From assembly GCA_964016885.1 (NCBI GenBank), contig OZ024740.1, positions 36,518,001 to 36,582,000 of the forward strand: 64,000 bases of DNA. The letters run 5' to 3'. Position numbers and translations under genes: made by a program. Of this stretch, positions 1,721-61,363 are shown one piece after another. Numbering within the stretch: the first letter of the stretch is position 1; each line of letters begins with the position of its first letter. This DNA comes from Eledone cirrhosa (taxonomy: Eukaryota). Under the pieces are notes generated by a model. The model worked only from the letters and a program-made list of their open reading frames with translations, had not been told where the DNA came from and searched no databases.

Positions 1721-1899
1721 ATCAACGAGAATAACACAGTCTTCGTTGCCATCACCACCAACTTCATCAGTCGTCATCCCAATCATGATCACCATGACGA
1801 CTCCATCTACAACATACTCAGAACCATCGTCCTCCCCCTCATCTTTAAAAATAACAACACCAATAACACTAACATTGCCGTTAACAACACTTCAACATC

Positions 1900-4800
1900 A
1901 GTACCATCGCTACCACCGCCACCACCATCTCTACCACTAGCATTACCACCGCCACCACCATCGCTACCACTAGCACTACCACCGCCACCACCATCGCTAC
2001 CACTAGCACTACCATCGCCACCACCATCGCTACCACTAGTACTACCGCCGCCACCACCATCTCTACCACTAGTACTACCACCGCCAACACCATCTCTACC
2101 ACTAGCATTACCACCGCCACCACCATCGCTACCACTGGTACTACCACCGCCACCACCATCTCTACCACTAGTACTACCACCGCCACCACCATCTCTACCA
2201 CTAGTACTACCACCGCCACCACCATCTCTACCACTAGTACTACCACCGCCACCACCATCGCTACCACTAGTACTACCACCGCCACCACCATCTCTACCAC
2301 TAGTACTACCACCGCCAACACCATCTCTACCACTAGCATTACCACCGCCACCACCATCGCTACCACTGGTACTACCACCGCCACCACCATCTCTACCACT
2401 AGTACTACCACCGCCACCACCATCTCTACCACTAGTACTACCACCGCCACCACCATCTCTACCACTAGTACTACCACCGCCACCACCATCTCTACCACTA
2501 GCATTACCACCGCCACCACCATCGCTACCACTAGTACTACCACCGCCACCACCATCTCTACCACTAGTACTACCACCGCCACCACCATCGGTACCACTAG
2601 TACTACCACCGCCACCACCATCTCTACCACTAGTACTACCACCGCCACCACCATCGCTACCACTAGCATTACCACCGCCACCTCCATCGCTACCACTAGT
2701 ACTACCACCGCCACCACCATCTCTACCACTAGCACTACCACATCCACCACCATCGCTACCACTAGCACTACCACCGCCACCACCATCGCTACCACTAGTA
2801 CTACCACCGCCACCACCATCTCTACCACTAGTACTACCACCGCCACCACCATCGGTACCACTAGTACTACCACCGCCACCACCATCTCTACCACTAGTAC
2901 TACCACCGCCACCACCATCGCTACCACTAGCATTACCACCGCCACCACCATCGCTACCACTAGTACTACCACCGCCACCACCATCTCTACCACTAGCATT
3001 ACCACCGCCACCACCATCTCTACCACTAGTACTACCACCGCCACCACCATCTCTACCACTAGTACTACCACCGCCACCACCATCGCTACCACTAGCATTA
3101 CCACCGCCACCACCATCGGTACCACTAGTACTACCACATCCACCACCATCGCTACCACTAGTACTACCACCGCCACCACCATCTCTACCACTAGCATTAC
3201 CACCGCCACCACCATCTCTACCACTAGTACTACCACCGCCACCACCATCTCTACCACTAGTACTACCACCGCCACCACCATCGCTACCACTAGCATTACC
3301 ACCGCCACCACCATCGGTATCACTAGTACTACCACATCCACCACCATCGCTACCACTAGCACTACCACCGCCACCACCATCGCTACCACTAGCACTACCA
3401 CCGCCACCACCATCTCAACCACTAGTACTACCACCGCCACCACCATCTCTACCACTAGTACTACCACCGCCACCACCATCTCTACCACTAGTACTACCAC
3501 CGCCACCACCATCTCTACCACTAGTACTACCACCGCCACCACCATCGCTACCACTAGTACTACCACCGCCACCACCATCGCTACCACTAGCACTACTACC
3601 GCCACCACCATCTCTACCACTAGTACTACCACCGCCACCACCATCGCTACCACTAGTACTACCACCGCCACCACCATCTCTACCACTAGTACTACCACCG
3701 CCACCACCATCGCTACCACTAGTACTACCACCGCCACCACCATCTCTACCACTAGTACTACCACCGCCACCACCATCGCTACCACTAGCACTACCACCGC
3801 CACCACCATCTCTACCACTAGCACTACCACCGCCACCACCATCTCTACCACTAGTACTACCACCGCCACCACCATCTCTACCACTAGCACTACTACCGCC
3901 ACCACCATCGCTACCACTAGTACTACCACCGCCACCACCATCTCTACCACTAGTACTACCACCGCCACCACCATCTCTACCACTAGCACTACCACCGCCA
4001 CCACCATCGCTACCACTAGCACTACCACCGCCACCACCATCGCTACCACTAGTACTACCACCGCCACCACCATCGGTACCACTAGTACTACCACCGCCAC
4101 CACCATCTCTACCACTAGTACTACCACCGCCACCACCATCTCTACCACTAGTACTACCACCGCCACCACCATCTCTACCACTAGTACTACCACCGCCACC
4201 ACCATCTCTACCACTAGTACTACCACCGCCACCACCATCGCTACCACTAGCACTACCACCGCCACCACCATCGCTACCACTAGTACTCTTACCGCCACCA
4301 CCATCGCTAACACTAGCACTACCGCCGCCACCACTATCGCTACCACTAGCACTACCACCGCCACCACCATCGCTAACACTAGTACTACCACCGCCACCAC
4401 CATCTCTACCACTAGTACTACCACCGCCACCACCATCGGTACCACTAGTACTACCACATCCACCACCATCGCTACCACTAGCACTACCACCGCCACCACC
4501 ATCGCTACCACTAGTACTACCACCGCCACCACCATCTCTACCACTAGTACTACCACCGCCACCACCATCGCTACCACTAGTACTCTTACCGCCACCACCA
4601 TCGCTACCACTAGTACTACCACCGCCACCACCATCGCTACCACTAGCACTACCACCGCCACCACCATCTCTACCACTAGCACTACCACCGCCACCACCAT
4701 CGCTACCACTAGTACTACCACCGCCACCACCATCGCTACCACTAGTACTCTTACCGCCACCACCATCGCTACCACTAGCACTACCACCGCCACCACCATC

Positions 4801-5310
4801 TCTACCACTAGCACTACCACCGCCACCACCATCGCTACCACTAGTACTACCACCGCCACCACCATCGCTACCACTAGCACTACCACCGCCACCACCATCG
4901 CTACCACTAGCACTACCACCGCCACCACCATCGCTACCACTAGTACTACCACCGCCACCACCATCGCTACCACTAGTACTCTTACCGCCACCACCATCGC
5001 TACCACTAGCACTACCACCGCCACCACCATCTCTACCACTAGTACTCTTACCGCCACCACCATCGCTAACACTAGCACTACCGCCGCCACCACTATCGCT
5101 ACCATTAGCACTACCACCGCCACCACCATCGCTACCACAAGCACTACCACCGCCACCACCATCGCTATCACTAGCACTACTACCGCCACCACCATCACTA
5201 CCACTAGCACTACCACCGCCACCACCATCGCTATCACTAGCATTACCACCGCCACCACCATCGCTACCACAAACACTATAACTGCCACCACCATCGCTAC
5301 CACTAGCACG
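1900..5310. repeat. 30-bp GC-rich minisatellite, about 110 units (CCACCGCCACCACCATC[T/G]CTACCACTAG[T/C]ACTA)
   Basis: Regular 30-nt period with point variants; the edges decay into CCA/CTA trinucleotides. Confidence 0.95.
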
Positions 5311-5723
5311 ACCCCCACCCTTCACCATCACTACATCCATCACTACAACCACCCTACCATCACTACCCCAAGCACTACTACCGCCACCACCACCATTACC
5401 ACTAACACGATCCTCTCTACCATCGCTACTGGGTGCTTTCGTCATGGCAACATCATTGTCTGGTCAGAAAGATAGATAAATAGATAAGTTTCTATTTATT
5501 TGCCACAGGGGCACAAAAGAAGGGGACAAATACAAAGAAGGAAGTTTACATACAATAAAAACGTGTATAATATCACAAATACAATTTAAAAGTTAATCGA
5601 TTTTCCCCAATAGGGGAAGACATTACATATGGGTAACACATACCCCCGAAAAAAATGTGCAACCCTCATCTCCAGGAGTAAGAAGAGTCTGTACCCCTTC
5701 CTCTCCTCCTCTTTTTCCTCAAC

Positions 5724-8568
5724 CTACAAGCTCTTATAGAGAGAAGGCCCATTCACTCGGGCCATTCTCGCCACTTTCACCCACCTTTCATAAAACTTGC
5801 TGGGGTACAGCACCTCTTTATACATCCTGATTCTTCTTCCAAAATGGTATCTGAAAAAAAGAATCAGTTGTTGGCCGGAGAGAAATGTGTCCGATCTCAG
5901 CCCTTTCAAGCTTGTCCACCATACAACCTCTTTCGCCATAGCTATCACACAAAGGAAAACCGCCTCTCCTTCGTTTTTGAAGGAGGGTGGAGGTTTGAGT
6001 GCGTGTTTGCGCATCGTCAGTCACGGCATCCCCAGCCCTCTGTTGGAAGGATGTGGGCAGCAGATGGATCTTCTCACAAAAAGAGCCCACCTCCTCCAAA
6101 GGAATTGGAAGAGCGCGCGCTCCATTTTGGTGAGCGTTTTGGCTGGACAAGGCACGACGGTCAAGTGGTAGTAGATGGCGGACACTATAAAAGTATTCGC
6201 CACCTCCGCTCGACCTTTCAAGGATAGTTTGCACTCGGCCCACTTCTGGGTGAGTGAAAACACCTTGGCCGTCACCTCCTTCCAGTTCTTCTCCACGTGG
6301 AGGTCCGGACCAAACCAGACCCCGAGCATCTTTACCGGTCCTTCCGTCCAGCGTCCGACGACGCCATCGGAAACATCGGTTTTCCTCACCACGATCCGAG
6401 TTGCAAACCGATGGACTTGTCCCGGTTGAGCTTCGCTCCTGTGAACCTTTCGTATTCCTTCAGTAATGTGCCGACTTCCTCGATTTGCAAGGCGCTCGTC
6501 ACCATTACTGGGACGTCGTCGGCGTAGGCCGACGCCGCTTTCCGCAGTCCCGGTTCCAGAGGGATGCCCTACAATAGCTCCAACTTCCGCAGTACTAGCT
6601 CGAGAGTCAGTACATTCAGAAGGAACGAGAGAGGGCATCCCTGTCGAATGGATCGCATGATATGGAACGGCTCCGAGAGGTAGCCGTTCACCTAGACCCT
6701 TGAGCAGATGTTGCTGTTGTGCATTGCAGCAATCCAGCCCTGAACACGGGTCCGAAGCCTGCCGCCTCGAGCACGGCATCCAGGTAACGATGGTCAACCC
6801 TATCGAAAGCGTTAGACTGACCCAAGTTGATCAGGGTCCACCGAAGCCGGGTTTACACCCTACCCTCTCTATGATGTATTGTATCGCATTAGGTGGAGGT
6901 TGTCGTGTATGGAGCTGGTCGGGATTGCGCATGTCTGCGCTTCTCCCACCAGGTTTTCTACGACAAGCGCCAGCCTCTTTGCCAACACCTTGGCCAAAAT
7001 CTGTAACTCTGAGTTTAGCGGAGTTATGGCCCGGAAGTTGCCTATAAATCCCCCTTATTCTCGTCCTTCCTGACTAGTGTGACTAGGCTCCCGGTCACAG
7101 AACTGTTAATTCTCCCGTTCTGCTGCCAATTGCAGTAGACCGCTTCCAGGAGTCCGGCATTGCTACGCAAAATTCGTAGGGTAGACCGTCGAGACCTGGA
7201 GTTTGCGTTTGCTGCATAGGCTCAGCGCGTCCCCTATCTCAGCGGCCGAAATCGGCCTTTCGCAGAACTTCGCCTCGCTGTCCGAGAGTCGCGGTAGGCC
7301 GTCGAGGTATGGACCGAAATCCATAGCCCCTCCCAACGCGCCGCCCTGCCCGAACAGTTGAGCAAAGTGCCGTCGAAAGGCCGCACACATCTGCTTCGGC
7401 TCACGTATCACGCGTCCGTCTTGGTCCTTCAAAGACCGAATCGTGGACTTGTTGCCACTTTTTGCCTCCGTCACTCGGGCCCAGCTAACAGCTTTGGCTC
7501 CCTCGTTTCCCAGAGCACGTATTTTGCTTCTGACAACGCAGCCCTCGTGCTTTGAGCCGAAGAAGTGGTCGAAGGCCGTTTTCGTTGCTAGCACGCTGGC
7601 TACGTTGCCACTTCTAATTGCCTCTTCTACTTTATCTACCAGTTCCTTCTCGGTTCTATTTCTATCTAACGCTAATTCTTTACTAAAAACTAACTTGTCT
7701 AATCTAACTGCCCTCTTGAGAGAGTACCACCATCTGTTGTTGACAATGGCCCCTGTCAAGTGCTGTTTAACTAAAGTGCTAATCCGTCTACTGTACGCTT
7801 TGCATGTCGGTAACGACAAGTTCAGCTTCCAGTAGCCGGGTCCTTGTCTATGGGTTCTATCAAGGTTGACCATGCAGGTCACTAGTTTGTGATCTGAATA
7901 GACAACCATGAACATTTGTGGACAGCTTAACATGTCCCTATCGTTATTTCTAACTAGAACCCTATCTAGGTACGATCTAGATGTTCCGCTGCGATTAGTC
8001 CATGTCCACAGTGGCACATTCGGAAAATCTAGTCGATATCTATCGGCCAGGTCATATCGACCGATTAACTGTTTGAGGCTGTTACACCCCCCTTTATCGG
8101 GACATGCTCCCACATAGTCCCAACGTGCATTTAGGAGTCCATTCCAGTCCCCCACTAAAAGCAAGGCGCGGGACGTTCCCAGAAAAGTCTCTAGACGTTT
8201 GAAGAAGTCTGGCCGCGGTGTCCCGGATGGGGCATATGCGGCAACCAGCCTGAAGGCTCCACCTTCAATACCGTCAACGTCTAGGACCACCAGTCGACCC
8301 TCCGGGTCCAGATGAACCGTCTGTGTTACGAGACCCAGGTGTTTCCGCAGCAAAACGGCCACCCGCCCCAACCCCCCGGCTGACAGAGAGATGCGTAGAT
8401 CTCAAAGTCATCGAAGATGGGGGCCAGCTGTCGCTCGCTGTAGATCCTGGACTCGCAAATGGCTACTACATCCATACTGTGCGACCTGAGGTCGTTTAAG
8501 AGTTTATCCTGTTTCCAGGGCATCCCCAGGCCGCGTACATTCACACATCTAACTCTGATATTGGCCAT
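5724..8568 (-). pseudogene. Copy A ORF2: APE endonuclease + reverse transcriptase, frameshifted, C-terminal zinc-finger region deleted
   Basis: MANIRVRCVNVRGL, VGDWN, YLDRVLV, YSDHKLV, GPGYWKLN (Tx1/L1-type); YADD codons at ~6516-6527; junction at ~5998 skips about 0.57 kb relative to copy D. Confidence 0.88.
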
Positions 8569-8607
8569 GTTGGTTCTGAAAAGTTAAAAAAGAAGAGAAG
8601 AAAACAC

Positions 8608-9400
8608 TCACCTCTTCGTCTCCCGGGGATCAGGCCGCACAATTTCCATGGGGGTGTTAGAGGGGTTGTCTGGGTGGGTGGTGGTTTCCGGCGGGGTGGG
8701 GACGGAGACGGTTGGTGGGGTGGGAGTGTCTGGGGAGTGTGTGTCTGGGGTGAGGGTGGGGAAACTTTTTAAAAGGACGCGGTTAATGGGTTTAAAACAA
8801 GGATTACCCACGTCCTTAGGAAAGTTTTCCTTTAAAGAATTATAGGTGTCCGTAGGGACCCTAATCATCTTTAAATTAGGTTTGTCTACACAGTTCGAAA
8901 AAGTTTTCCCTTCGGTTTTCACCGAATGGTCGTTGGAGATGACCTCCATTAAAGTTTTGTTTTTACTGTTTATGTATGTGTAATGTTCTTGTTGTGTTGC
9001 GGTGGTTTTTGTCTGTTGTTCTTGTGGGAGCTTTCGTTTTATTGTAGGTGTATGTGTTTGGAGTGATGTCGTGGTTTTGTTTTCAGGACGGTGGGGGGGG
9101 GGGGGGTTGTAATGTTTGTGTTGTTTGTTTTGGTGGTAGTATGTTTGTAGTGATGTTTGTTGTTTTTTTTGTTCTTGTGGTGTCTTTTCTTCTTTCTTTT
9201 CGAACGGAGAGGCTCTCCCTCATCGTCACTTGGTGATGATGTGGGAGCCTCGTTCGTTGTGGTGTCTGTGTTATTTGGAGGGGGATGTTTGGGGAGCTGT
9301 TGTGTTTGTGGGTGTTTTTGCAGTGGTTTTAGGTGGAGTGGGGTTGGGTGGGACTGTGGTTGCTGGTTGGTTTTTTGTTCTTGTTTTGGTTATGTTTGCG

Positions 9401-9499
<99 letters not shown>

Positions 9500-10568
9500 G
9501 GTTGTGTTGTTGTTTTGGGTGTTGTCAGTAGTGCCTCTTTTTTGTAGTTAACTGAGGACAGTAAGCCTTCAGGCGACCACTGCTTAAACAGTGGTAACAT
9601 GAAGGCCCCCTACCCTCAACAGAAATGTTTATGTGTGAATTTCCATCTAGAGGCACACGTTGGGGTATTTTAGCTAACCGTTCTGGCCTCATTTGGACCA
9701 GAACTTCCATGCTTGTACCATTGAATGTGCCTTTGGAGGACTTTCCCACCGAAATGATGGTGTCTTCGTCGAAATCGATGAAGCCAGTTAAAATCCACCA
9801 GACGTTTACATTTGGTGCAATGTTCGAAATTTTTATCTTTTGTGTTCTTTTTCCCATATATATGGGGAAAAAGGTGTAAAGGGGGGGGACACAATCGGCG
9901 ATACAGAATATTTTTGTGCTGTCAATTGGTCTCTCGACAACACCGAAATTCTTCCAAAAAGTTTCCCTTTTGGGATGAAGGCAATATCCTTCATGGAATT
10001 CTTCAGAACCAGTTCAATATCGTTTTGGGATAACTGAACTGGTTTTTTCGATACATTTGAAACCGTCCTAAAAATTACTGTTTTTAGAACAGTTTCTCTG
10101 CGTAACTGTTGAGGAGAAGTGATGCTGAAAGCATCACTCACACCAAAAGTTACATACTGTTTTGTATCGCTTAACATTTCCTTAGCATTGGAAATGTCAA
10201 GGGTATGTGAACAGTTCCGTCTTTTGGACGGTTTGAGCAAAGGAAATGTTTTCCTTATTCGTGGAGTTGTTCGTGTTGCTGTTGTTGTTGTTGTTGGTGT
10301 TGTTGTTATCATTTTTGCTGTTGTTGTTCTTGTTGTCATTATTGTTGTTGTTGTTGTTCTTGTTCTTGTTGTTCTGGTTGGTGTTGTTTATATTTTGCAT
10401 GTTATTGGTGTTTGTGTTAGTGTTGATGTTACAATCAATGTCCGACATCGTGTTTTCACAACTGACGACATTTTCGATGTCTTTCATTGAAGTGGTGAGA
10501 GGAGGTGACTGTGAGCTTAACACTCTTACCGCCTCTCCAACACTTTTAGTACTGAACGCAGCGTCCAT
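8608..10568 (-). pseudogene. Copy A ORF1 (gag-like, degenerate CCHC knuckle, poly-Q insert), frameshifted
   Basis: ORF pieces 10197-10580, 9833-10339, 9525-9857 (VEGRGPSCYHCLSSGRLKAYC) and 8608-8949 are homologous to ORF1 of copies B and C. Confidence 0.82.
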
Positions 10569-10792
10569 GACTGAATGCAAGGTTTATTTACAATTTTTTC
10601 ACCGGCGAAATTTTTTCAAAACGAAAATTTCACCCCAGAGAGGGGTGAAGATGACTTGACCCACCGTCTGAAAGTCCAGACGTGGGGTCAAGCTATAAAA
10701 TAGTGTTAAATTTAACAATAAATTTTTGATTTCTTACTTAGAAAATCAACAAAAACTTACCAGCGAACTGACACACGTCTCAAGCAAAACAG

Positions 10793-10809
10793 TAGGTAGA
10801 TAGATAGAT
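10793..10809. repeat. (GATA)n junction between copies B and A
   Basis: TAGGTAGATAGATAGAT. Confidence 0.85.
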
Positions 10810-10963
10810 TTATTTATTTGCCACAAGGGCGCACACGAAAAGGGGACAATGGGGGGAGGAGCACCAGAAATGGGTTGTTTAATACCCCGTCGATAGAACA
10901 ACCCTCAACTCCAGGAGCGTATTGTGCAGGTGCTCCTTTCTTCATTTTGCTCTCTTCTTTAAC

Positions 10964-13900
10964 CTACAGACTTATAAACAGAGAAGGCCCATTCACTCGG
11001 GCCTTTTTTGCCACATTCACCCACCTTTCAGTAAATTTACTGGGGTGCAGTGCCTCTCTCTCCACTCTGATTCTCCTTCTAAAGTGATACTTAAAGAAGG
11101 GAATCAATTGTTGTCCGGAGAGAAAGGCATCTGTCCTCAGTCCTCTCAATCTCGTCCACCATATAACTTCTTTCACCATAGCCACTGTAGAGAGGAAAAC
11201 CGCCTCTCTTTCGTTTTTGAAAGTGCTGGCGGTTTGATCCTTAATATGGACTCGGCAGTCAACTGGATTTGTCCCATACGCGACAGCAGTTGTTCTGCAT
11301 AGTTCCGCAGGTCGGTTACGCCCGGGCAGTGTACAATTGCGTGCAGGACGGTTTCAATGTCCTGCGCGCATCTTGGTCACGTCCTCTTGGAAGGATGCCT
11401 GTAGATATTGTCACGAACTGGTAGAGCTCCTCGGTAGCAGTGCCAGGCCAGGGACCTCTGGTAGTTGTCCATAGGTCCCAAGCGGAAAATCCTACCAAAC
11501 AGACTGGTGAGCTCATCGTCTTCGACGCCCAGAGTCTCTCCGAGCACGTCGTCGCCCTTGTAACCTACAATCCCTCTATAGAATGTCGAAGTGGAGTCTC
11601 CACTGATTGCTGTGCCCGCTTGCCAGGGGACTGTGAGCGCCTGAGCGAATTCATGTGCCAGGCACCCATCGTTTTCGGTCTTTTCTAGACCCAGGACGGC
11701 AGCTCCGTCAGCGAGACGAGCTACGGGAAAGCCTATCTCATAAACGGTGCCCACATCGGTTGGAGGTCGGTGAGGAATACCTGAAGATGCCGCAGCCTCT
11801 GCGCATGTTTGCGCATCATCAGCCACGGCATTCCCAGCCCTCCGTTGGAAGGGTGCTGGCAGCAGACGGATCTTCTCATCAGCGGAGCCTGCTTCTTCCA
11901 CAGAAACTGGAAGAGCATACGTTCCATCTTTGCAAGGTGTTCACGGGGACAAGGCACGACAGTCAAGCGGTAGTAGATGACGGACGCTATGAAAGTGTTC
12001 GCCACCTCCGCTCGACCTTTCAATGACAGTTTGCACTCTGCCTACTTCTGGGTGAGCTCAAACACCTTGGCCGTGACTTCGTTCCAGCTTTTCTCCACCT
12101 GGAGGTCTGGACCGAACCAGACCCCGAGCAATTTTTCCTGTCCGTCCGTCCAGCGTCCAACGACGCTGTCGGACGTCATCAGTTTGCCTCTCCACGTACC
12201 GAGTTGCAAACCGACAGACTTGTCCGGGTTTAGTTTTGCTCCCGTCAGCGTTTCGTATTCTTTCAGTAAGTTGCCGATCACCCCGTTTTCCGAGGTGCTT
12301 GACACCATTACCGTCACGTCGTCGGCATAAGCCGACGCCGCTTTGCGCAGTCCCGGTTCTAGAGGGATGCCCTGCAACAGGTCCAATTTCCGCAGTAGTG
12401 GCTCTAGAGTCAATACATACAGAATGGAGGAGAGAGGGCACCCCTGTCGAATGGAACGCGTGATTGCGAACGGCTCCGATAGGTAGCCGTTCACCTTGAC
12501 CCTCGAGCAGATGCTGGTGTGCATCGCCGCGATCCAATCTCTGAAAACGGGACCGAAACCGGCCGCCTTGAGAACCGCTTCCAAGTATCGATGGTCGACC
12601 CTATCGAATGCCTTAGACTGATCCAAATTGATCAGAGCCCCACCGAAGCCGGGTTTACTACCCACCCTCTCTATGATGTATCGCATGAGGGGGAGGTTGT
12701 CGTGTATGGACCTGGTTGGGATTGCACACGTTTGCGCTTTCCCTACCAGGTTCTCGACGACAAGCGCCAACCTCGTCGCTGGCACCTTGGCCAAAATCTG
12801 TTGAGCAGAGTTATGGGCCTGAAGTTGTTAATTTCGTCCCCCTTGTTCTCGTCTTTCTTGATCAGCGTTACTACGCCCTTGCCTGCAGAAATGGGAATTC
12901 CCCCGTTCTGCTGCCAATTGCAGTAGACGGCTTCGAGGACGCCAGAGAACAACTCCGGCATGTCTATGTAAAACTCATAGGGTAGAGCATCTAGACCGGG
13001 TGACTTGCGTTTCCCGCAGCGGCCCAGAGCGTCCCGTATCTCAGTGTCCGTGATCGGTCTTTCGCAGAACTCGGCGTCCGTGTTCGAGAGACGCGGCAGG
13101 CCGTCGAGGTATGAACTAAAGTCCATTGCCCCGTTTGGCTCACCGTCGTTCTGCTCAAACAGTCGCGCAAAGTGCTGCTGAAAGGCCGCGCACATTTGCT
13201 TGGCGTTAAGTAACACGCGTCCGTTTTGGTCTTTCAATGACCGAATCGTGGACTTGTTGCCACTTTTTGCCTCCGCTACTCGGGCCCAGCTGACAGCTTT
13301 CGCTCCTTCGTTTCCTAGAGCACGTGTTTTGCTTCTGACCACGCAGCCTTCGTGTTTCGCATCGAAGAACTGGTCCAGTGCCGTTCTCGACGCTAACACT
13401 CTAGCCGCGTTGCCACTTCTAAGTGCCTCCTCTACCTTGGCTACTAGTTCTCTTTCTATTTTGTTTTTCTCTAAGGCTAACTCTCTGCTAAACCCTATCG
13501 ATTCTACTCTAATCGCTTTCTTAAGAGAGTACCACCATCTATTGTTGACGATGTCTCCCGTTAACTGTTGCTTGACTAGTCTACTTATCCGTTCACTGTA
13601 AGCTTTACGTGCCGGCAACGACACGTTCAGCTTCCAGTATCCGGGTCCTTGTCTATGTGTTCTGTCACGGTTAACTATGCAGACGACTAATTTGTGATCT
13701 GAATAGGGAACAATGTGCTTTCGTGGACAGCTTAACAACTCCTTGTCCCTTTCTCTAAGGAAGAACCTATCTAAATACGATCTAGATGTCCCGCTGCGGT
13801 TTGCCCACGTCCACTGTGGTGCAGTCGGGAAATCCAGTCGATTCCTATCGGCCAGTTGGAATTGGCCGATTAAAGTTTTGAGGCTGTTGCACCTCCCTCT

Positions 13901-14384
13901 ACTGGGTCATGCTCCCACATAGTCCCATCGTGCATCTAGGATATCATTACAGTCCCCCACTAAAAGTAAGGAGCGAGACGTTCCCAGAAAAAAACTCTAG
14001 ACGCTTAAAGAAGTCTGGCCGTGATTGCGATTGCCCGGTCGGGGCATAAACGCCCAACAGTCTGAAGGCTCCACCTCCAATACTGTTCACGTCTAGGACT
14101 ACCAGTCTACCCACCGGGTCCAAGTGTACTTGCTGTGCTTCGGCGTCCAGTTTCTTCCGAAACATGACAGCCACTCCTCCTCCTCCACCTCCTGGCTGAC
14201 AGAGAGATGCGTAGATCTCAAAGTTGTCGAAGATGGGGCTTAGCTGCTGCCTGTTGTGGATCCTGGACTCGGTGATGGCTATCACATCCATACCGTGTGA
14301 CCTAAGGTCGTTTAAAAGTTGGCCCTGTTTCCAGGGCATCCCTAGGCCACGCACATTCACGCTTCCGACTCGTAAACTAGCCAT
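10964..14384 (-). pseudogene. Copy B ORF2 APE-RT, frameshifted
   Basis: MASLRVGSVNVRGL, YSDHKLV, NFRPITLLN, LDQSKAFDRV, RQGCPLS, YADD across ORF fragments. Confidence 0.88.
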
Positions 14385-14425
14385 GTTGGTGGAGAAGAGT
14401 TGGCGAAAAGGACAAAAAGGTGCAC

Positions 14426-16358
14426 TTACCTTTTCGTTTCCTGGAGATCGGGTTGTTCAATCTCCATTTCAGTTCTGGTGGGGGTTTGGGTGGGGTGGGG
14501 AACCATTATAATAAGACGCGGTCAATAGGTTTTTGACAGGGGTTGCCAACATCCTGCGAAAACTGTTCTTTCAATTTCTGATAGGTTTTTATCGAAACCC
14601 TTATTAGTTTTAGGTGTGGCGACGATTTTTCTTTGACGAAAGTCTTGCCTTCCGTCTCCACCTTGGGGTTTTGGGAGATGACTTCCATCAAACTCTTGTT
14701 GTTTGTGTTGATGTATGCATATTGTTGTTTGTGTTTTTGTTGTGTTGTTTTAGTTTGTTGTTCGTTCGGGAGTTTTCTTTTTATGGTGGGTGCTTGTGTT
14801 TGGTGTGGTGTTGGTGTTGGTTTTGCTGATAGGGGGGTGTTTGACTGTGGTGTTGTTTGTGTCTGTGGTTGTGTGTTGGTGTTGGTGATTGGAGTTTTGT
14901 GGGTTTTGTGGTATCTCTTATTTTGTTTTTTTAGATTTCCGAGGCTCTCCTTCTTCTTCACTTAAAGAAGGAGAAGCAGCCTCATCTATCGATGAATAAT
15001 CATCGTCAGGAGTGTCGGGTAGGGGTATGTTGTGTGGTGGTGGTGCTTCGGTGTGTGTGTTTGTGGTAGTGTTTGATGGAGTGGGATGGGTTGGGGCTGT
15101 GTTCTTCAGGGGTGTTGTCTGTGTTTTTTTTCTGTTGTTGTTAGTTGAGTGGCTGTTTGTTTTGGTGTGTTTGCTCGTTTCATCTGTTGTACTTGTGGTG
15201 GTGGTTGTTTTTGGTGTTGGTGTTGGTAATAGTGTTTTTTTAATGATGATGTTGTGGTGTGTTTGTGAAGGACAGGAAGCCTTTAGGTGTGTTGTGCTAC
15301 CACAGCGAAAGCAACGAGGTTTACGTCCCTCCACCGAAATGTTTATTTTGTTGTTGTCGTCGATGACGACTTTTTCGGGTATTTTGGAGATTCTCTCCGG
15401 CCTCATCTGCTTCAGAATCTCCAAATCAGTACCCGCCCACCTTTGTGGTGGGTGTGGGCAATAGTCCTTTTTGGGGGACACGTTTCGGGCAGTTAGCCTT
15501 AATGTGTCCCCTTTCCATGCATAAATAGCATGCTGGTCTTCTCCCTTCTACAATTATATCTATTGGGGTGAGCTCATCCAGCCAGATGCGATCCGGGATT
15601 TGTGCTATTCTTTCGGGCCTCATTTGGACTAGTAGGTCGAGGCCCATTCCCAGGAACGCATCTCCGGATGCCTTCCCCATTGACAGCACTGTGTCCTCGC
15701 CCATGACTATGAAGCCAGCAATAGCCCACCAGAAGTCCATTGTGGGCAGCATTGTTTGTAATTTTACTCTCTGTGTTCTTCTACCCATGTAGGAGGGATA
15801 GAAGCTGTATGTTGTCGATGAGAGTGGGCTTATGGAAAGCTTCTCCGCCGTTTCCTTGTCTTTTGTCAGGACCGAAATGCTGCCATAGAGTCGGTCCTTT
15901 CGTATGAAGAGAATATTCTTCATATAGTCTTTTAGGACCAACTCTATCTCCATTTGGCTGGGCTGTGCTGGCTTTCTTGTTTCGTTTAGGATTGTTCTGA
16001 AGAGAACTGTGTTCTCTGTTCTCGCTTTCTTGAATTCTGGGGGGGAGTTAATGGAAAACATTCCATTCTCCCCCAAAACAATGTGTTTCTTTGCTTCGGC
16101 CAGTTTTTCTCTGGCGGCCGTTAGGTCAATTGGTGTGTATGTAATGGATTGTTTTGTTTTCTGGGCGAAAGTTGCCCTGTTGTTATTTGTATTATTTTCT
16201 GTTTGTTTGTTTTCCGTTTGCTCATTTTCCTTAACATTTGTTTTTTCATTTTCTTTGTTTGTTTCGTTGTCTAATTTTGTTGTAATTATTTTTTGTTCTT
16301 CAGACTTGGGGGGCGTGGCAGAGCTAATGGTAGACATGTCTGCTATCTTTTCCGCCAT
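14426..16358 (-). pseudogene. Copy B ORF1, a fusion of two subfamilies
   Basis: CYLCMERGHIKANC (15426-16385 ORF), then a second QMRPERI...VEGRKPRCFRCGSTTHLKASC (14918-15481 ORF); ends ...QETKR-TAA. Confidence 0.82.
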
Positions 16359-16561
16359 GCTGCCAAGAACGAAATTTTTCGGCAAAATTAGATATTTATT
16401 TTACCCCCTAAAAAGGGGGTAAATGCAAAAATGTTTCCCTAAATAACAGGGGTTAGTGTTCCAAATGTGTTGCACTGAAAAAATTTATCCGGTACTTACA
16501 ATAGTAAGGGTAAATCCCGATGGAATAGCGGAGCCGATGTGAAGCGTGTCTTACTCTATCA

Positions 16562-16589
16562 AGATAGATAGATAGATAGATAGATAGAT
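16562..16589. repeat. (GATA)n junction between copies C and B
   Basis: AGATAGAT... about 7 units. Confidence 0.9.
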
Positions 16590-16801
16590 TTCTTTATTTA
16601 CCATAAAGGCATAAAAAGAAGGGACAAATACAAAGGGGAGTTTACATATAATCGAGTAAAAAGGGTATAAAATGAAAATAATCGAAAACAACCTCAAAAG
16701 GGAGGGACGTGATGGGGGTTGCACAGACCCCCGAAAAAGTGTGCAATCCTTTGCCCGGGGAGCACATGGAGAAGGTGCTCCCCTCTCCTTCACTTCTTTA
16801 C

Positions 16802-19800
16802 CTACAGGATGGTATACAGAGAAGGCCCATTTACACGAGCCATTCTCGCCACTATCACCCACCTTTCATAAAACTGCCTGTGGCCAAGCACCTCTCTCTC
16901 CATTCTTATCCTTCTTCCGAAGTGATATCGGAAGAAGTAGACCAGACTATGGCCAGAGAGGAAGTTTCCTGACCTCAGACCTTTCAATCGTTTCCACCAA
17001 ACAACCTCTTTCAACATGGCTATTACGCACAGAAAAACCGCCTTTGCTTCCTTTGTGAAGAGGGGAGGCGGTTTGATTGTCATCACGGACTCGGCGGTCA
17101 ATTGAATCGGCGCCACCCGCGACAGCAGTCGTTCGGCGTAGCCCCACAGATCAGCCACGCCCGGACATTGCACCAATGCGTGCGCAACGGTTTCTTCGTG
17201 ACGCACGCATCTAGGGCAAATCTTTTTCGAGGGATCCCTGCCCGGGCGCCCGTGTCTGTAGAGCCTCTCTCGAACGGGTAGAGCCCCCCGGTAGCACTGC
17301 CAGGCTAGTGACTTCTGGAAGTTGTCCATTGGTCCCGGGCCGAAAGTCCTACCAAACAGGCTGGCCAGTTCGTCCTCCTCAATGTCCAGCGACTCTCCAA
17401 GGGTGTCATCGCCCCTGCTAGCCACCAGCCCTCTATAGAATGATGAGGTGGATTCTCCACCGATGGCCTGGCCCGCTTGCCAGAGAGCCCTGAGCGCCTG
17501 GGCACACTCAGTGTGCCAGTCTCCCAGTTTTCCGGATCTTTGCTTGACCCAGGACTGCAGCTCGGTGAGCGAGACGAGTCTCGGAAAGGCTCGTTTCACG
17601 AACGGAGCCCACAGCGGTTGACCAGTGAGGAATACCTGTAGGTGCCGTAGCCTTAATGCGTGCCTACGCATCATCAACCACGGCATCCCCAGCCCTCCTT
17701 TCGAAGGTTGTTGGCAGCAGATGGATCTTCTCACCATAGGAGGGCGCTTCTTCCAAAGAAATTGGAAGAGCATGCGTTCCATGGTGGTGAGTGTTTCCTT
17801 AGGGCAAGGCACGACAGTCAGGCGGTAGTAAGTGACGGACGCTATGTAAATGTTCGCCACCTCCGCCCGGCCTTTTAGGGACAGCTTACACTTGGCCCAT
17901 TTCTGGGTTAGTGCAAACACCTTGTTTGTAACCTCGTCCCAGTTCTTTTCCACCTGGAGGTCCGGTCCAAACCAGACCCCAAGCAACTTTACCGGGCCCT
18001 CCGTCCAGTGTCCGACGACACCGTCGGGAGGCATCGGTCTGCCTCTCCACGTTCCGAGTTGCAGCCCGATGGATTTTTCCCGGTTCAGTTTCGCTCCTGA
18101 CAACCTTTCGTAATCCTCCAGTAAGGTACCGATCGTCTCGATCTCCGAGTCGGTCGATACCATTACTGTTACGTCATCGGCGTAGGCCGACACCGCTTTG
18201 CTCAATCCTGGTTCCAGGGGGATACCCTGCAACAACTCTAACTTCCTCAGTAAAGGCTCGAGAGTCAATACGTACAGAAGGGAGGAGAGAGGGCACCCCT
18301 ATCGAATGGATCGTGTGATTTCGAACCGCTTCGAAAGGTAGCCGTTCACCTTGATCCTAGAACAGATGTGGTTGCTGTGTAAGGCAGTGATCCAGCCTCT
18401 GAAAACAGGACCGAACCCAGCCGCCGCTAGCACCGCATCCAGGTAACCATGGTCGACCCTATCGAAGGCCTTAGACTGATCCAAGTTGATCAGGGCCCCA
18501 CCGAAGCCGGGTTTGTTGCCAACCCTCTCTATGATGTATCGCATGAGGTGGAGGTTATCGTGAATGGACCTGGATGGGATAGCACATGTCTGCGCATCTC
18601 CCACCAGGCTACCCACGACAAGCGCCAACGTCTTTGCTAACACCTTGGCCAAAATCTTTAACTCTGTATTTAGCAGCGTTATGGGCCGAAAATTATTTAT
18701 ACTATCCCCCTTGTTCTCGTCCTTCCTCACCAGCGAGACTACGCCCTTGGCTACAGAACAAGGAATTCTCCCGTTCTGCTGCCAATTGCAGTAGACCGCT
18801 TCGAGGAGTTCGGAGAAGAAGACCGGCATTGCTAAATAAAGTTCGTAAGGTATACCATCGAGACCTGGAGATTTGCGTCTGCTGCATTGGCTCAGCGCAT
18901 CTCCGATCTCATCAGCCGAGATTGGTCCCTCGCAGGACTCTGCCTCTTCGCTCGAGAGACGCGGCAGGCCGTCGAGGTATGGACCGAAATCCACGTCCCC
19001 GCCCGAACCCTCGCCTCCCCCGAATAATCGGGCAAAGTGCCTTTGAAAGGCCTCGCACGTCTGCTTAGGCTCCCGGATCACCCGTCCATCCTCGTCTTGC
19101 AACGACCGGATGGTGGATCGATTTCCACTCTTAGCTTCTGTCACGCGGGCCCAGCCAACGGCTTTGGCCCCCTCATTACCTAGAGCACATATTTTACTTC
19201 GAATGACGCAGCCTTCGTGCTTTTCATCGAAAAACTGGTTCAAGGCCGTCCTCGATGCCAGCATTCTGGCCACATCTTCGCTCTTGATTGCCTCTTCTAA
19301 TTTACCTGTTAATTCTTTCTCATTTCTATTCCTATCGGCAGCTAACATCTTGCTATAACTTATTGATTCTGTTCTAATCTCTCTTTTGAGAGATGCCCAC
19401 CATCGGTTGTTGACGATTGCACCCGTCAACCTCTCTTTAACTAATCTGCTAATCCGGTTTCTGTAAGTCTCTTTTGCCGGTAAAGACAAATTAAGTTTCC
19501 AGTAACCGGGACCCTGTTTATGTGTTTTCTCGAGATTGACTACGCAGGTCACTAATTTGTGATCCGTATAGCCAACCGTGCGCATTTCTGGACAGCTTAA
19601 TATGTCCCTATCCTTACTTCTAACTAAGAATCTATCTAAGTACGATCTAGATTGACCACTGTGGTTTCTCTAAGTCCAGGTAGGCACAGTTGGAAAATCT
19701 AGTCGATATCTATCGACCAAGTTAAAACGGTCGAGTAACCCCTTGAGGCTGTTACACCCCCCTCTATTAGGACATGCTCCTGCATAGTCTCAACGTGCAT

Positions 19801-20239
19801 CTAGGATGTCATTCCAATCCCCCGCTAGAAGCAGGGAACGCGACGTTCCCAGAAAAGTCTCCAAACGCTGGAAGAAGTCGGGCCGTTCAGCTCCGAAAGG
19901 GGAGTAGACGGCGACCAGTCTCAAGGCCGCACCTTCACTACTGGCAACGTCTAGCACCAACAAACGACCCTCCGGGTCCGAGTGAACAACCTGTACGGCA
20001 AGACCCAGGTGTTTTTGCAGCAGTACGACAACCCCACCCCCACCTCCAGGTTGACAGAGAGATGCATGCACCTCAAAGTCATCGAAGGTAGGGGCCAGCT
20101 GTCGCACGACGCTGATCCGAGTCTCACAGATAACCATTACATTTATACCACATGACCTGAGGTCATTTAGAAGCTTTGCTTGCTTCCAAGTTGAGCCCAG
20201 GCCACGTGCATTCAAACATCCTACTCTTAACACATCTAT
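16802..20239 (-). pseudogene. Copy C ORF2 (~1145 codons; APE, RT, C-terminal CCHC) in one frame with three nonsense codons
   Basis: ORFs 19790-20233, 18299-19585 and 16802-18268 share a frame; stops at 19790, 19670 and 18299; YADD; CPRCVRHEETVAHALVQC; the expected start reads ATA. Confidence 0.9.
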
Positions 20240-20272
20240 GTGGGCGGGAGAGCCAAAGGAGAGTGTAGAGAC

Positions 20273-22185
20273 CTACCTTTTTGCTTCCCGGGGTTCGAGT
20301 CGCACGACTTCCATGGGGTCGGGGGTGTTGGGTGAAGGGGTGTCTTGTGGTGGTGTGGGGTCGTCAGTGTGTGGTGGGGTTGGGGTGTTTGGAGTTCTGT
20401 TGGGGAGGGGAAGGGGAGGGGGAAAGCTTTTTAGTAGGACGCGGTTTATGGGTTTGACAGAGGGTCGTCCTACGTCCTCCTTAAAATCCTTTTTTAGTTT
20501 TTGGTAGAGGTTCATTGGGATCTTTATTAATTTTAAATGTGGGTAGTTTTCTGAAGAAACAAAGTTTACACCTTCGGTTTGTACCGAAGGATTATTGTTT
20601 ATGAGTTCATTTAATTTATTATTGTTTCTGTTGATGTAAGTATAGTGTAATGTCTTTTTTTCGGATGGTGTGAGTGTTTCGAAGAGGGGAGGGGCAGGTT
20701 TGGTTTTGTTTGTTGCTGGAGGGGTGTTTTGTGTTTTGTTGGATTGTGTTGACATTTGGGTGGGGGTTGTTTGGCCTTGTGTGTTTTACACATGCTTTCT
20801 TTTTTTCCTTTTAATCTGTCTGAAGGACTCCGTTTCTTCCTCCGAATTCGTTGGGTTATCTTCAGTGTTGGAGGGAAGAGGTATGTTTGCTGGTAATATT
20901 TCCGTGTTGGTTTTCTTTGTGGGGGAGATGGATATCACTATGTTAGACTGTGTTGTGTGTTGTGGCTGCGGTGGTTGTGTTGTTTTATTGAGTGAGGGGT
21001 TGGGTGGGGCTGTATTTTATTTTGGGTAATGTGTTGTGACTGTTTGTGTTGTGGTGGTGGTGTAGTTTTATTGAGGGACGGGTTGGGTGGGACTGAGTTT
21101 TGTTGTTTGTTTATCTGTTGTGGTGGTGGTGGTGGAGCTGGTGTTGGTAGCAGGGTTTTCTTTTTGTTGAGTTGGGGACAAGCCGCCTTCAGGTGCCCTC
21201 TGCCTGCACAGATATGGCAGGATGGCCTTCTCCCCTCCACGCTAATGTTTATATACCCGTGGTCCTCTAATAGGATTCTGTCGGGTATTTGGGCGATGCG
21301 TTCAGGCTTCATTTGCACTACAAGCTCTATACCTGTTCCACTGAACGCATTGCCTGTGGTTTTCCCAATGGAAATCACGTTGTCATTCGCTGGATCGATG
21401 AAGCCAGCTATGAGCCAGCAGTAGTCCAGATCTGGCATCATTGCATCCAGCCATATGCGTTGAATTCTTTTACCCATATAAGATAGATAAAAGGTAAAAT
21501 TTTTCGAACGAATCGGTGACAAAGCACATTTTTTTGCCGCCGATTCGTTCTTCACAATGATCGCTAGGCTTCCATACAGTCTGTCTTTTCTTATGAAAGT
21601 GGTTTCATTAAGTACTTCTGTGAGTACTGTTGTGATTTCTGTTTGAGTTGGCTGTTCAGGTTTTTTAGAAGTGTTGTTGATGGTGCGGAAAACGACCGTT
21701 CGACTTTCAATGTCTTTGGTGAGTTCTTGAGGCATTTTTACCGATAAAATACCATTCTCTCCTTCAGTTATATATTGTTTGGCGTCTGCAATTCTTTGTG
21801 CCACATCTGAAATATTTTCAGGTATATATGTCAAAGATTTCTTTGTTGTTTGTGCAAATGAAATCTTATTGGTGTTGACTTTGTCGTCTGCTTTGCTTTC
21901 TGTTATGATGTTGTTTTCAAATGTTATTTTTGTGTTTGTTGTGTCTTTGTTTGTGGTATTAATATTGTCATGCAATTTTTCAAATTTTTTTTTTTCGTTG
22001 TTGGAATCCATGTCCAGATTTGTGTTTTCGTCATTTTTCTCCGCAGATTCGTCTGTTTTTATTTTATTTTTTCCTTCCGTCTCTATGACGTTAGTTGGGA
22101 AGGAAGGGGGGGGGACTAAAGCGTGCGAGTTTACAACTCTTACCGCTGTCCCCCCACCACTATTTTCGTTAGCTTCGTTTAACAT
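20273..22185 (-). pseudogene. Copy C ORF1 (CCHC knuckle), frameshifted in the low-complexity linker
   Basis: 415-aa ORF with CHICAGRGHLKAAC, plus 160-aa C-terminal ORF ending EPREAKR. Confidence 0.85.
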
Positions 22186-22411
22186 TTCTGTCAGACGATT
22201 GAAATTTTTTATGCCACAAAATTTTTAAAAACAGGTTTTTCACCCCTAGGAGGGGTAAAGATGAGCTGACCCACCGCCTGACAGTTCAGACGGGGGGTCA
22301 AGCTACACAATAGTATCAAAATTAAAATTGAACTTACAAAATTTCCGCAATAAATTTGAACAAAACTTCTGCGCGAAGTGAATTACATCTACGCTGTAGA
22401 ACAGACGACAG

Positions 22412-22436
22412 CTAGATTAATAGATAGATAGATAGC

Positions 22437-22478
<42 letters not shown>
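22412..22478. repeat. (GATA)n junction between copies D and C
   Basis: About 16 units with interruptions. Confidence 0.9.
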
Positions 22479-24577
22479 TGTTTCTTTATTAGCCACATGG
22501 GCACAAAAGAAGGAGACAAATACAAAGGGGGAAGTTTACATACAATAAAAACGTGTAAAATATTATCACAAATGCAATTTAAAAGTTAATCGATTTTCCC
22601 CAATAGGGGGAGACATTTCATATGGGTAACACATACCCCCGAAAAAATGTGCAACCCTCATCTCCAGGAGCACGAAGAGTTTGTACTCCTTTCCTCTCTT
22701 CCTCTTTTTCCTCAACCTACAGGCTGATATAGAGAGAAGGCCCATTCACTCGCGCCATTCTCGCCACTTTTACCCACCTTTCATAAAACTTGCTGGGGTA
22801 CAGCACCTCTTTATCCATCCTGATTCTTCTTCCAAAGTGGTATTTGAAAGAAAGAATCAGTTATTGGCCGGAGAGAAAGGCGTCTGACCTCAGCCCTTTT
22901 AACCTTGTCCACCATAAATCTCTTTCGCCATAGCTATCACTCACACAAAGGAAAACCGCCTCTCTTCGTTTTTGAAGGAGGGTGGAGGTTTGATCATGAC
23001 AATGGACTCGGTGGTCAAACGGATTGGTCCCACTCGCGACAATAGTCGTTCTACAGAGCCCCACAGGTCGGTAACGCCCGGGCAGTGTATGAGTGCGTGC
23101 GCGACAGTTTCTTCGTCTCGCACGCATTTTGGACAGATCTTTTTCGAAGGGTCCCTTCCCGGGCGCCCATGTCTGTAGAGCTTGTCTCGAACTGGTAGAG
23201 CTCCTCGGTAGCATTGCCAGGCCAGGAACTTTTGGAAGTTGTCCAACAGTCCCGGGCGGAAGGTCCTACCGAATAGACTGGCCAGTTCGTCTTCCTCTAC
23301 GCCTAGAGCTTCTCCGAGCGCGTCGTCGTACTTGCTGCGGATCAACCCTCTATAGAATGACGAAGTGGAGTCTCCACTGATCACCGGGTCCGTCTGCCAG
23401 AGGGCTGTGAGCGCCTGAGCACAGTCGATGTGCCAGTCGCCCATTTTCCTCGGTCTTTGCTTAACCCAAGACTGCAGCTGGGTCAGCGAGACGAGTCGTG
23501 GGAAGGCTCGCCTCACGAACGGGGCCCACACCGGTTGTCCGGTGAGGAATACGTAGTATTGCCACAGCCTGAGCACGTGTTTGCGCATCGTCAGCCACGG
23601 CATCCCCAGCCCTCCGTTGGAAGTGTGTTGGCAGCAGATGGATCTTCTCACAAAAGGAGCCCGCTTCTTCCAAAGGAATTGGAAGAGCGCGCGCTCCATT
23701 TTGGTGAGCGTTTTGGCTGGACAAGGCACGACGGTCAAGCGGTAGTAGATGGCGGACGCTATAAAAGTGTTCGCCACCTACGCACGACCTTTCAAGGATA
23801 GTTTGCACTCGGCCCACTTCTGGGTGAGTGAAAACACCTTCGCCGTCACCTCGTTCCAGTTCTTCTCCACCTGGAGGTCCGGACCAAACCAGACCCCGAG
23901 CAGCTTTACCGGTCCTTAGGTCCAGCGTCCGACGACGCCATCGGAAGGCATCGGTTTTCCTCTCCACGATCCGAGTTGCAAACCGAGGGACTTGTCCCGG
24001 TTGAGCTTCGCTCCTGTGAACCTTCTGTATTCTTTCAGTAATGTGCCGACTTCCTCGATTTGCGACGTGCTCGACACCATTACTGTAACGTCGTCGGCGT
24101 AGGCCGACGCCGCTTTCCGCAGTCCCGGTTCCAGAGGGATGCCCTGCAATAACTCCAAATTCCGCAGTAGTTGCTCGAGAGTCAGTACGTACAGAAGGGA
24201 GGAGAGAGGGCATCCCTGTCGAATGGATCGCGTGATATGGAACGGCTCCGAGAGGTAGCCGTTCACCTTGACCCTTGAGCAGATGTTGCTGTTGTGCATT
24301 GTAGCAATCCAGCCCCTGAACACGGATCCGAAGCCCGCCGCCTCGAGCACCGCATCCAGGTAACGATGGTCGACCCTATCGAAAGCGTTAGACTAACCCA
24401 AGTTGATCAGGGCCCCACCGAAGCCAGGTTTATACCCTACTGTCTCTATGATGTATTGTATCGCATGAAGTGGAGGTTGTCGTGTATGGACATGGTCGGG
24501 ATTGCGCATGTCTGCGCTTTTCCCACCAGGTTTTCGACGACAAGCGCCAGCCTCTTTGTCAACACCTTGGCCAAAAT
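22479..24577 (-). mobile_element. Tx1 copy D: RT through 3' end, same subfamily as A
   Basis: 3' UTR and RT are near-identical by eye to 5495-7000; retains the zinc finger CPKCVRDEETVAHALIHC. Confidence 0.88.
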
Positions 24578-35750: not shown

Positions 35751-37810
<2,060 letters not shown>

Positions 37811-44090: not shown

Positions 44091-44939
44091 ACATTCCTAG
44101 CCTCGCAAAAAGTCAGGAAAAAACACTAAATAAATAGGTTATAATTTTTGACGTCTCTTATCAACTAAGTGCGTAAAATGTTATAACAGATTATAAAACC
44201 TTATAATTATTTTTTATTCATTTATGATATGATTAAAGTTAGATGCTTAAAGGGTTCTATATAAACATATAGACTGTTAACATGATCTCTTGATGAATAT
44301 GCATATCGTTTGATTGTGTAGAAATATTTATTTTGATTGGGATTCTTGTATTTTTTTTAATATATAGCTTATATGGTTAACAGTGTTAATTAACCGTAAA
44401 CCATTCATGCATATATGTATTTATTCTTTTGGAGTATCTTAGTTTTAAGTTTCAGGATGTTTGATTTATATCTTTATATTTATTTATATATATATATTTA
44501 TGGTATATGCATCGCACACGATCCTAGTCGTCAAACCTTTTCCACTTAACTTCATGTAAAATTTCAATTATAATCTTTACTAACAATGATTGTATTTATT
44601 ATTTATTATATGTATTTGGATCACTAATATCGTCTTGAGTTCCGAACAGAATATTCTGTATATATTTGGACAAATGTATATATCTAGTTTAATAATATGC
44701 TTCTAGCCACATTTATAAGTACTTTAGATACTTAAGGAAATTCTAGTGTTATAATTGTTAAATATCTTCTAAATTATATAACGATTATTATTTTTTAATT
44801 TAATTAAATTCGGGTTACCTTCGGGTCGATGAAAATCTTAAGTTTTCTCTTTTTCATGTTTGCAGACACTTTAAATATGAAATTATACTACATATACATT
44901 TGTCCAAATATATACAGAATATTCTGTTCGGAACTGCGG

Positions 44940-45471
44940 TCCCCCTATTAAATCTTATATCATCAACAAAAAATCACCTAGAGAACATCAAAATTGCTCC
45001 TGTAGAGTCAAAAGTGAATACCCATTACAAGGTAAATGCAACACCAAAGCCATTGTATATGCGGCTAAAGTGACAACCATCAGCAACAACCAACCAGCCA
45101 CCAGTGAACGATATGTGGGTATGACACAAGACAAGTTCAAAACGCGTTATTACTCACATGTCGCATCCTTTCGACATCCAGAAAAAAGATTCACAACAGC
45201 TCTGGCTAGCAGAATATGGGATTTGAATGATCAAGGTATCCAATATAAATTAGATTGGTCAATTTTGAACCAATCTAAAGAATATGCAAGAGGAACAAGA
45301 AAATGCACACTCTGCGTAAATGAAAAATATTGGATTTTACAAAACCTTAAATCACCAAAAACCTGCCTAAATACAAAGACAGAAATTTTTACCAGTTGCC
45401 CACACATTAAATCACACTTGCTTTCCAGCTCATATAAACTTAACTCACTTTCAGATACTTATCCTCCATAA
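44940..45471 (+). mobile_element. Penelope-like GIY-YIG endonuclease fragment, second family
   Basis: IVYAAKV...YVGMTQDKFKTRYYSH...CTLCVNEKYWIL...LNTKTEIFTSCPH. Confidence 0.85.
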
Positions 45472-61320: not shown

Positions 61321-61363
61321 TATGTATGTAGGTATGTATGTATGTATGCATGTATGTATGTAT

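Follow-up and report, generated by a model that had tools for sequence, protein, structure and literature searches.

A 5′ splice site-like motif is kept over the ORF1 stop codon in seven LINE families of Eledone cirrhosa, and splicing of ORF1 to ORF2 is not supported

The question raised by an array of transposable elements in the genome of Eledone cirrhosa is whether a sequence resembling a 5′ splice site, placed on the stop codon of one open reading frame (ORF), allows that ORF to be spliced to the next. The array lies on the minus strand at positions 5484-25808 of a 64,000-nucleotide (nt) stretch (36518001-36582000 of contig OZ024740.1, within a 3.0-Gb animal genome; hereafter the window), and consists of decayed non-LTR elements (LTR, long terminal repeat) arranged head-to-tail: copies A, B and C, a 5′-truncated A copy and D-like fragments. 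Copies A, B and C are all broken, and each comes from a family with at least 150 matches. In copy A the donor-like 9-mer GAG|GTGAGT (8606-8614, minus strand, +1 G at 8611) overlaps the ORF1 stop codon TGA (8608-8610), in copy B AAG|GTAAGT (14424-14432, minus strand, +1 G at 14429) overlaps TAA (14426-14428), and in copy C AAG|GTAGGT (20271-20279, minus strand, +1 G at 20276) overlaps TAG (20273-20275). These three sites were correctly located in a preliminary description of this DNA, which proposed that a micro-intron removes the stop codon and joins ORF1 to the apurinic endonuclease (APE) and reverse transcriptase (RT) of ORF2. The splice donor-like motif is real, and the fusion is not supported.

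The motif was followed in the best 30 loci from each of seven protein searches (n = 210; top hits rather than random draws, from one genome), families D, E, F and G having been found by walking neighbouring arrays and with a distant query. G|GTRRGT was present just 5′ of ORF2 in 187 of these loci, in all seven families (A to G), and the loci lacking it are explained by point changes, deletions, truncations or later insertions. The site matches the consensus 5′ splice site at 8-9 of 9 positions, and was the best or joint-best donor match in 11/11 representatives with an intact site, the twelfth representative in the ranking having been fetched for its mutated donor. Positions −1G, +1G, +2T, +5G and +6T are invariant in 7/7 families, compared with 0/43 of the other donor-anchored columns, and the motif positions that vary, +3 and +4, hold purines only. 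U1 small nuclear ribonucleoprotein (snRNP) tolerates variation at these two positions.

Four-fold sites of ORF2 were used as the null, with 57 of 254 invariant (0.22 per column), giving p values of ~0.0005 for five columns and ~0.003 for four. Conditioning the null on identity in families A, B and C, from which the hypothesis arose, leaves 114 sites, of which 55 have the same base in D-G too, and gives p ~0.03-0.05 for four to five columns. The flanks fall below the null, with invariant columns numbering 55/362 in the gapless ORF1 tail and 1/22 in the spacer, in an alignment that misplaced the A2 and G donors; a donor look-alike built by ORF2 codons is lost in 2/7 families. The motif is held in two reading frames, and the stop codon overlaps it in both: it reads as Arg-stop-GT in subfamily A1 and families B, C, D and F (the Arg being CGG in subfamily F2), and as Gly-Lys/Glu-stop in A2 (KGE-stop), E (PEGK-stop) and G (DQGK-stop). 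The stop position shifts between families from +2..+4 to +6..+8 with the nucleotides unchanged, and both the frame shifts and the 40 nt by which F2 and G differ in length end at the motif. A caveat raised at the outset, that a terminal Arg (AGG) followed by a stop supplies part of the motif, applies to A1, B, C, D and F, but retention of the motif in the other frame and with CGG argues that it is not merely the product of Arg plus stop. It is probable, although not certain, that the motif nucleotides are under selection, beyond what chance would leave.

The proteins of long interspersed nuclear elements (LINEs) act in cis, copying the RNA that encodes them (PMC5860796), so spliced RNA is expected to leave intron-less copies in the genome; 131 of 6,609 full-length human L1 copies (~2%) are such spliced copies (PMC5860796). 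At the ORF1/ORF2 junction, 0 of 4,691 genomic junctions of families A-E, the families counted genome-wide, were spliced, the counts being of exact matches with duplicated copies included. Family B gave no match with a gap of 0-30 nt, compared with 541 with a gap of 40-65 nt. In families C and D, 2,389 exon ends were followed by GT, and the spacer is retained in each of the 14 cases where +2 is a different base. None of the 1,400 + 16 ORF2 starts of family A was spliced and the direct spliced pattern was absent; the 16 are those with a changed upstream base, of which 14 retain the spacer, one has an internal deletion and one is truncated. Family E had 331 ORF2 starts, none changed upstream. Joins of the donor to an AG at the ORF2 stop were likewise not found in A-E, no ORF1-less copies were found in which the donor of the 5′ untranslated region (5′UTR) is joined to the A or E acceptor, and no longer ORF1-containing proteins were found, which is weak evidence. 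Contigs (88 Mb) from a run of unrecorded kind, aligned with two other runs at one locus and alone at another, gave no joint with GT..AG ends at a junction among the 15 of 161 and 15 of 17 joints inspected, a result to which no evidential weight is given.

The geometry proposed for the micro-intron was accurate for the window copies. The first downstream AGs give introns of 36 nt in copy A, to the acceptor-like TTTTCAG ending at 8576 (junction peptide K-R-T-N-M-A), 53 nt in copy B, to GCTAG at 14377 (K-S-L-R-V), and 41 or 51 nt in copy C, the longer one to TTAAG at 20226 (K-R-V-G-C). The nearer AG of copy C was rightly ascribed to its start codon reading ATA (20237-20239), which is a decay private to this copy, as 29/30 family C loci have ATG, and CATAG is not a family feature. 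In-frame acceptors are present in the window copies but are not family-wide. An ORF1 frame was assigned at 161 loci; splicing to the first AG would be in frame at 102 of them, in A1, old B, C, D and F, and out of frame at 59 (A2, E, G and one C locus). The acceptor proposed for B, with the junction reading ATGGCTAG, occurs in only 257 of 541 B junctions, and intact B copies of 1,148 amino acids (aa) carry GCT GGT in its place. In C, D and F the in-frame acceptor is the AG of an Arg codon in L-R-(V/I)-G, as at 20226 in copy C (L-R-V-G), and the splice comes out in frame because both sites lie inside Arg AGR codons. An AG upstream of the AUG is found in families A and E only, and three of the five lineages with a near-full ORF2 are unable to fuse by splicing. 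At 28-42 nt, such introns would be shorter than the minimum usual in metazoans. On these sequences an ORF1-APE-RT polyprotein made through a stop-removing micro-intron appears largely refuted.

The same copy-based reasoning can be applied to a second donor-like site, observed 20-70 nt from the 5′ end in most families. In A1, B and D it is followed, ~67-70 nt on, by TTTTATAG, CTTTGTAG or TTTTGTAG, in the manner of a small 5′UTR intron; in copy A the donor CTG|GTAAGT (+1 at 10760) and a candidate 68-nt AT-rich intron ending TTTTATAG occupy 10693-10763 of the minus strand. Families C and A2 have GA at the donor position and GTGAGT further on, and no 5′UTR donor-like site was seen in family G. Intron-less copies of this region numbered 0 in D, relative to 382 unspliced copies with the 67-nt candidate intron, and 0 in B, a figure without a control count. 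Since this candidate intron is never missing, the copy test has no positive control in these families, and a spliced RNA pool that does not replicate would escape it. At the other end of ORF2, the stop codon lies in an acceptor-like CTR TAG G in families A-E (10962-10969, 16800-16807 and 22715-22722 of the window, minus strand), is TAA in F, and reads TAG T in most G copies.

How ORF2 is translated from an unspliced RNA is suggested by its start. The spacer from the ORF1 stop to the ORF2 start is 39 nt in copy A (8569-8607, minus strand, pyrimidine-rich), 41 nt in copy B and 33 nt in copy C, close to the earlier estimate of ~35-41 nt with copy C falling below it. It is followed by the ORF2 ATG at 8566-8568 in copy A (context CCAAC ATG G) and at 14382-14384 in copy B, and by the decayed ATA in copy C, so that spacer, start and proposed acceptor together span 14377-14425 in B and 20226-20272 in C, both on the minus strand. 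The ATG is kept in 206/210 loci, 28-45 nt from the donor and preceded by (A/C)AC or AGC. The unspliced frame of ORF2 relative to ORF1 is 0, +1 or +2 depending on the family, and this lack of a conserved frame excludes conserved readthrough or frameshifting; stop readthrough and frameshifting were rejected on this ground, A2 having in addition two in-frame stops. A conserved AUG combined with a varying frame fits termination-re-initiation as in L1 and SART1. Element 5′ ends within 25 nt of the AUG, inside the spacer, were observed in 3/150 loci, relative to ~20 over the other 1,475 nt, which is above a uniform spread. Two further 5′-end cases are later insertions. An internal ORF2 promoter was considered and rejected, because only 1 of 1,416 A copies genome-wide starts at the acceptor.

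Folding of the families tested predicts pairing of the donor G-G. The spacer of family G contains UCACUUACC, the reverse complement of the donor, which is predicted to mask it, and the family G junctions carry TCACTTACC, an exact reverse complement of the donor whose shared variants are G-U compatible. The predicted G stem is more stable than shuffled spacers (z −2.8 to −4.2), and its three common variants (33/49 copies) all retain the pairing. TCACTTACC is similar to the 5′ end of U1. A universal hairpin was not found, as shuffled spacers were outperformed in G and in a minor B variant alone and no structure is common to all the families.

The reading preferred here, with a rough probability of 0.45, is that the motif is a U1-type cis-element which sits at the ORF1 end without being spliced and that ORF2 is translated from its own AUG by re-initiation. 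Regulation through a U1 site, offered in the preliminary description as a side suggestion, thereby becomes the leading interpretation of the sequences. U1 snRNP would bind the ORF1-end site during transcription and may help the full-length RNA to pass the A-rich ORF1 without premature 3′-end formation; the want of an AG at workable distance would keep the donor from being spliced, as would its masking in G; and ORF2 would then be translated from its own AUG by termination-re-initiation. Several observations weigh against this reading. The G representative has no poly(A) hexamers near the site, and those present are not homologous from family to family, so a conserved target that U1 might protect was not found. 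Except in G and the minor B variant, the hairpin does not improve on shuffled pyrimidine spacers (z −1.5 to +0.2 for the commonest variants), and a masked donor, as in G, would bind U1 less rather than more. All sampled families come from one genome and are related (four-fold identity 0.50-0.70), which is why the conditional p value reaches just ~0.03-0.05. The stop codon always overlaps the motif, and a role in translation fits this equally well. U1 binding and any effect on the RNA are here inferred from sequence.

Such a translational role would make the motif a signal (a strong stop context together with a local stem-loop and an unstructured C/U spacer) that governs ORF1 termination and ORF2 re-initiation and resembles a donor by coincidence; alternatively, the motif could be a DNA-level factor site like that of RUNX3, within which the L1 5′UTR donor lies. 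This explanation is doubtful, although it has the most to be said for it among the alternatives: the stop overlaps the motif in both frames, the AUG lies at the distance and in the context given above, L1 and SART1 use termination-re-initiation (PMC5972666), and the L1 donor is itself conserved for a reason other than splicing (PMC5860796). The motif is, however, not fixed relative to the terminating ribosome, since the stop moves from +2..+4 to +6..+8 while the nucleotides stay, and the families share no structure. That the motif has no function, being an ancestral Arg-stop-GT that survived by chance in related families, is improbable. The unsaturated four-fold sites (55/114 conditional identity, p ~0.03-0.05 for four to five columns) and the post hoc nature of the hypothesis would allow it, but the flanks are far more diverged (55/362 ORF1-tail and 1/22 spacer columns invariant), the frame shifts and the F2-versus-G length difference stop at the motif, and family G has its predicted anti-donor.

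Two further explanations have the donor used for splicing. In one, slightly less credible than chance survival and likewise improbable, spliced molecules form an RNA pool of their own, which is translated or degraded and never reverse-transcribed, giving an ORF1-only or dead-end RNA as with Copia shGAG. In its favour are the perfect donor and the pyrimidine tract and AG that precede the AUG in A and E; an RNA lacking ORF2 or the 3′ end would leave no DNA copy, and the plausible 67-nt 5′UTR intron is also without spliced copies (0 versus 382 in D). BARE reportedly provides a precedent for a separate, non-replicating spliced RNA pool (PMC3735527). Against this, ORF1 already has a stop codon without splicing, the outcome of splicing varies by family (fusion, stop or no acceptor), no join of the donor to the ORF2 end was found in A-E, and the acceptor-like TAG is replaced by TAA in F. 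The other is the original proposal, in which a micro-intron of 36-53 nt removes the ORF1 stop to give the ORF1-APE-RT polyprotein. It draws on the in-frame outcome at 102/161 loci, including families C and D with intact ORF2s, and is nevertheless highly improbable, as 0/4,691 junctions are spliced despite cis copying of the element's own RNA, 59/161 loci (A2, E and G among them) are out of frame, the acceptor is missing from intact B copies, fusion is impossible in three of the five lineages whose ORF2 exceeds 1,100 aa, and 206/210 loci retain the ORF2 AUG. Of the findings named beforehand as telling against it, the use of another Arg codon (CGG, in F2) and the lack of any intron-less copy were both observed, yet the +5/+6 GT is conserved.

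A more speculative extension of the U1 reading, which we consider unlikely as a whole, is that the donor on the ORF1 stop acts as a switch by which engagement of U1 in the nucleus is coupled to termination of ORF1 and re-initiation at ORF2 in the cytoplasm. Full-length template RNA would be made only when the site is bound and unspliced, spliced RNA would pass to a non-replicating pool, and family G would have evolved its U1-mimicking anti-donor as a gate.

The domains and targets of these elements fit L1/Tx1-type LINEs of the Tx1 clade as described in PMC4494074. ORF2 of an intact relative has APE (PF03372) and RT (PF00078) matches above the cut-off and a zf-RVT match (PF13966, E 8e-5) below it, and its best solved-structure match is L1 ORF2p (E 4e-54). 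A zf-CCHC match, at E 0.0045 and below the cut-off, was obtained in one of the three ORF1 pieces scanned. A zinc knuckle in ORF1 is a feature of the Tx1 clade. No named Tx1 element was among the homolog and atlas search matches, which include more distant relatives at 40% ORF2 identity, represented by protein sequence only. A metagenome scan for relatives in other species gave no match, and the 13/30 loci inspected from the distant-protein query all belonged to families E and F. Near-full ORF2s (open for 1,124-1,148 aa) occur in five lineages, and intact young copies exist. Elements end in AATAAA plus a few bases and adjoin microsatellites, and their 5′ ends lie against (TATC)n in families A-D and (TAT)n in E-G, an association that is not a rate because 5′-end rows were chosen by the target repeat or by the 3′ end of the upstream element. 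Elements of these two target lineages form mixed head-to-tail arrays; a pure family E array of ten copies with 5.84-kb spacing was also observed at 423.36-423.42 Mb of the window's contig.

Within the window, and on the minus strand, copy A (subfamily A1) is a whole decayed element at 5484-10790, with ~570 nt of ORF2 missing near 5997 and the 3′ AATAAA at 5495-5500. Copy B is a decayed element at 10847-16560 that is family B-like from 10847 to 15446 only, its 5′ 1.1 kb belonging to another family; the region 15447-16560 had no match above ~70% among the ten representatives tested and appears to form a chimera with an unsampled family. Copy C, at 16590-22415, is whole and ~96% identical to an intact family C copy. 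The (TATC)n target microsatellite is found between copies C and B (16563-16586) and 5′ of copy C (22423-22478). Outside the array, a 33-bp minisatellite of ~3.5 kb with long low-complexity ORFs in several frames lies at 1880-5410, and other decayed non-LTR elements, comprising an APE and RT pair and RT or zf-RVT fragments, lie at 47243-50033 (plus strand), 60472-61533 and 63068-63988 (both minus strand). The ORFs at 36006-36821 and 44881-45471 (plus strand) and 51196-52032 (minus strand) had no Pfam match at E 0.01, and by eye resemble Penelope-type RT tail or GIY-YIG pieces and a restriction-like endonuclease tail.

Among the closest described systems are Kibi, in (TC)n, and Koshi, in (TTC)n, of the Tx1 clade (PMC4494074), which share two ORFs, an ORF2 with APE, RT and zinc domains, microsatellite insertion and arrays, and differ in their targets from the (TATC)n of A-D and (TAT)n of E-G. 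No junction donor in Kibi/Koshi-type elements turned up in the literature searches. Human L1 also has a conserved, functional-looking donor (G98U99, giving the SpIREs), seldom used and conserved on other grounds; it lies in the 5′UTR within a RUNX3 site and has left ~2% spliced copies (PMC5860796), whereas the site here lies over the ORF1 stop, with 0/4,691. As in L1 and SART1 (PMC5972666), a bicistronic RNA has its ORF2 start tens of nt past the ORF1 stop, at 63 nt in L1 and at 33-41 nt in copies A, B and C, but here stop and start do not overlap, and the junction has in addition a conserved donor-like motif and a spacer rich in C and U. In Arabidopsis, the unspliced EVD Ty1/Copia RNA is protected by U1 from premature termination (PMC5580714), and U1 likewise blocks 5′ polyadenylation in foamy virus (PMC3694450), both being retroelement U1 sites that act without splicing and show that RNA structure can mask a donor. 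Those systems belong to LTR elements or viruses in which there is a real intron and the poly(A) target is defined, in contrast to the present families, in which no conserved acceptor or poly(A) site was found. A donor at a LINE ORF1/ORF2 junction was not reported in the titles and abstract openings searched, mainly in the open literature, with Repbase outside the search.

With this negative result the more striking possibility, an ORF1-RT polyprotein made by splicing, falls away. The production of full-length RNA and the ORF1:ORF2 ratio in bicistronic LINEs are understood for few elements, and a seven-nucleotide element kept in seven families independently of frame provides a precise mutational handle.

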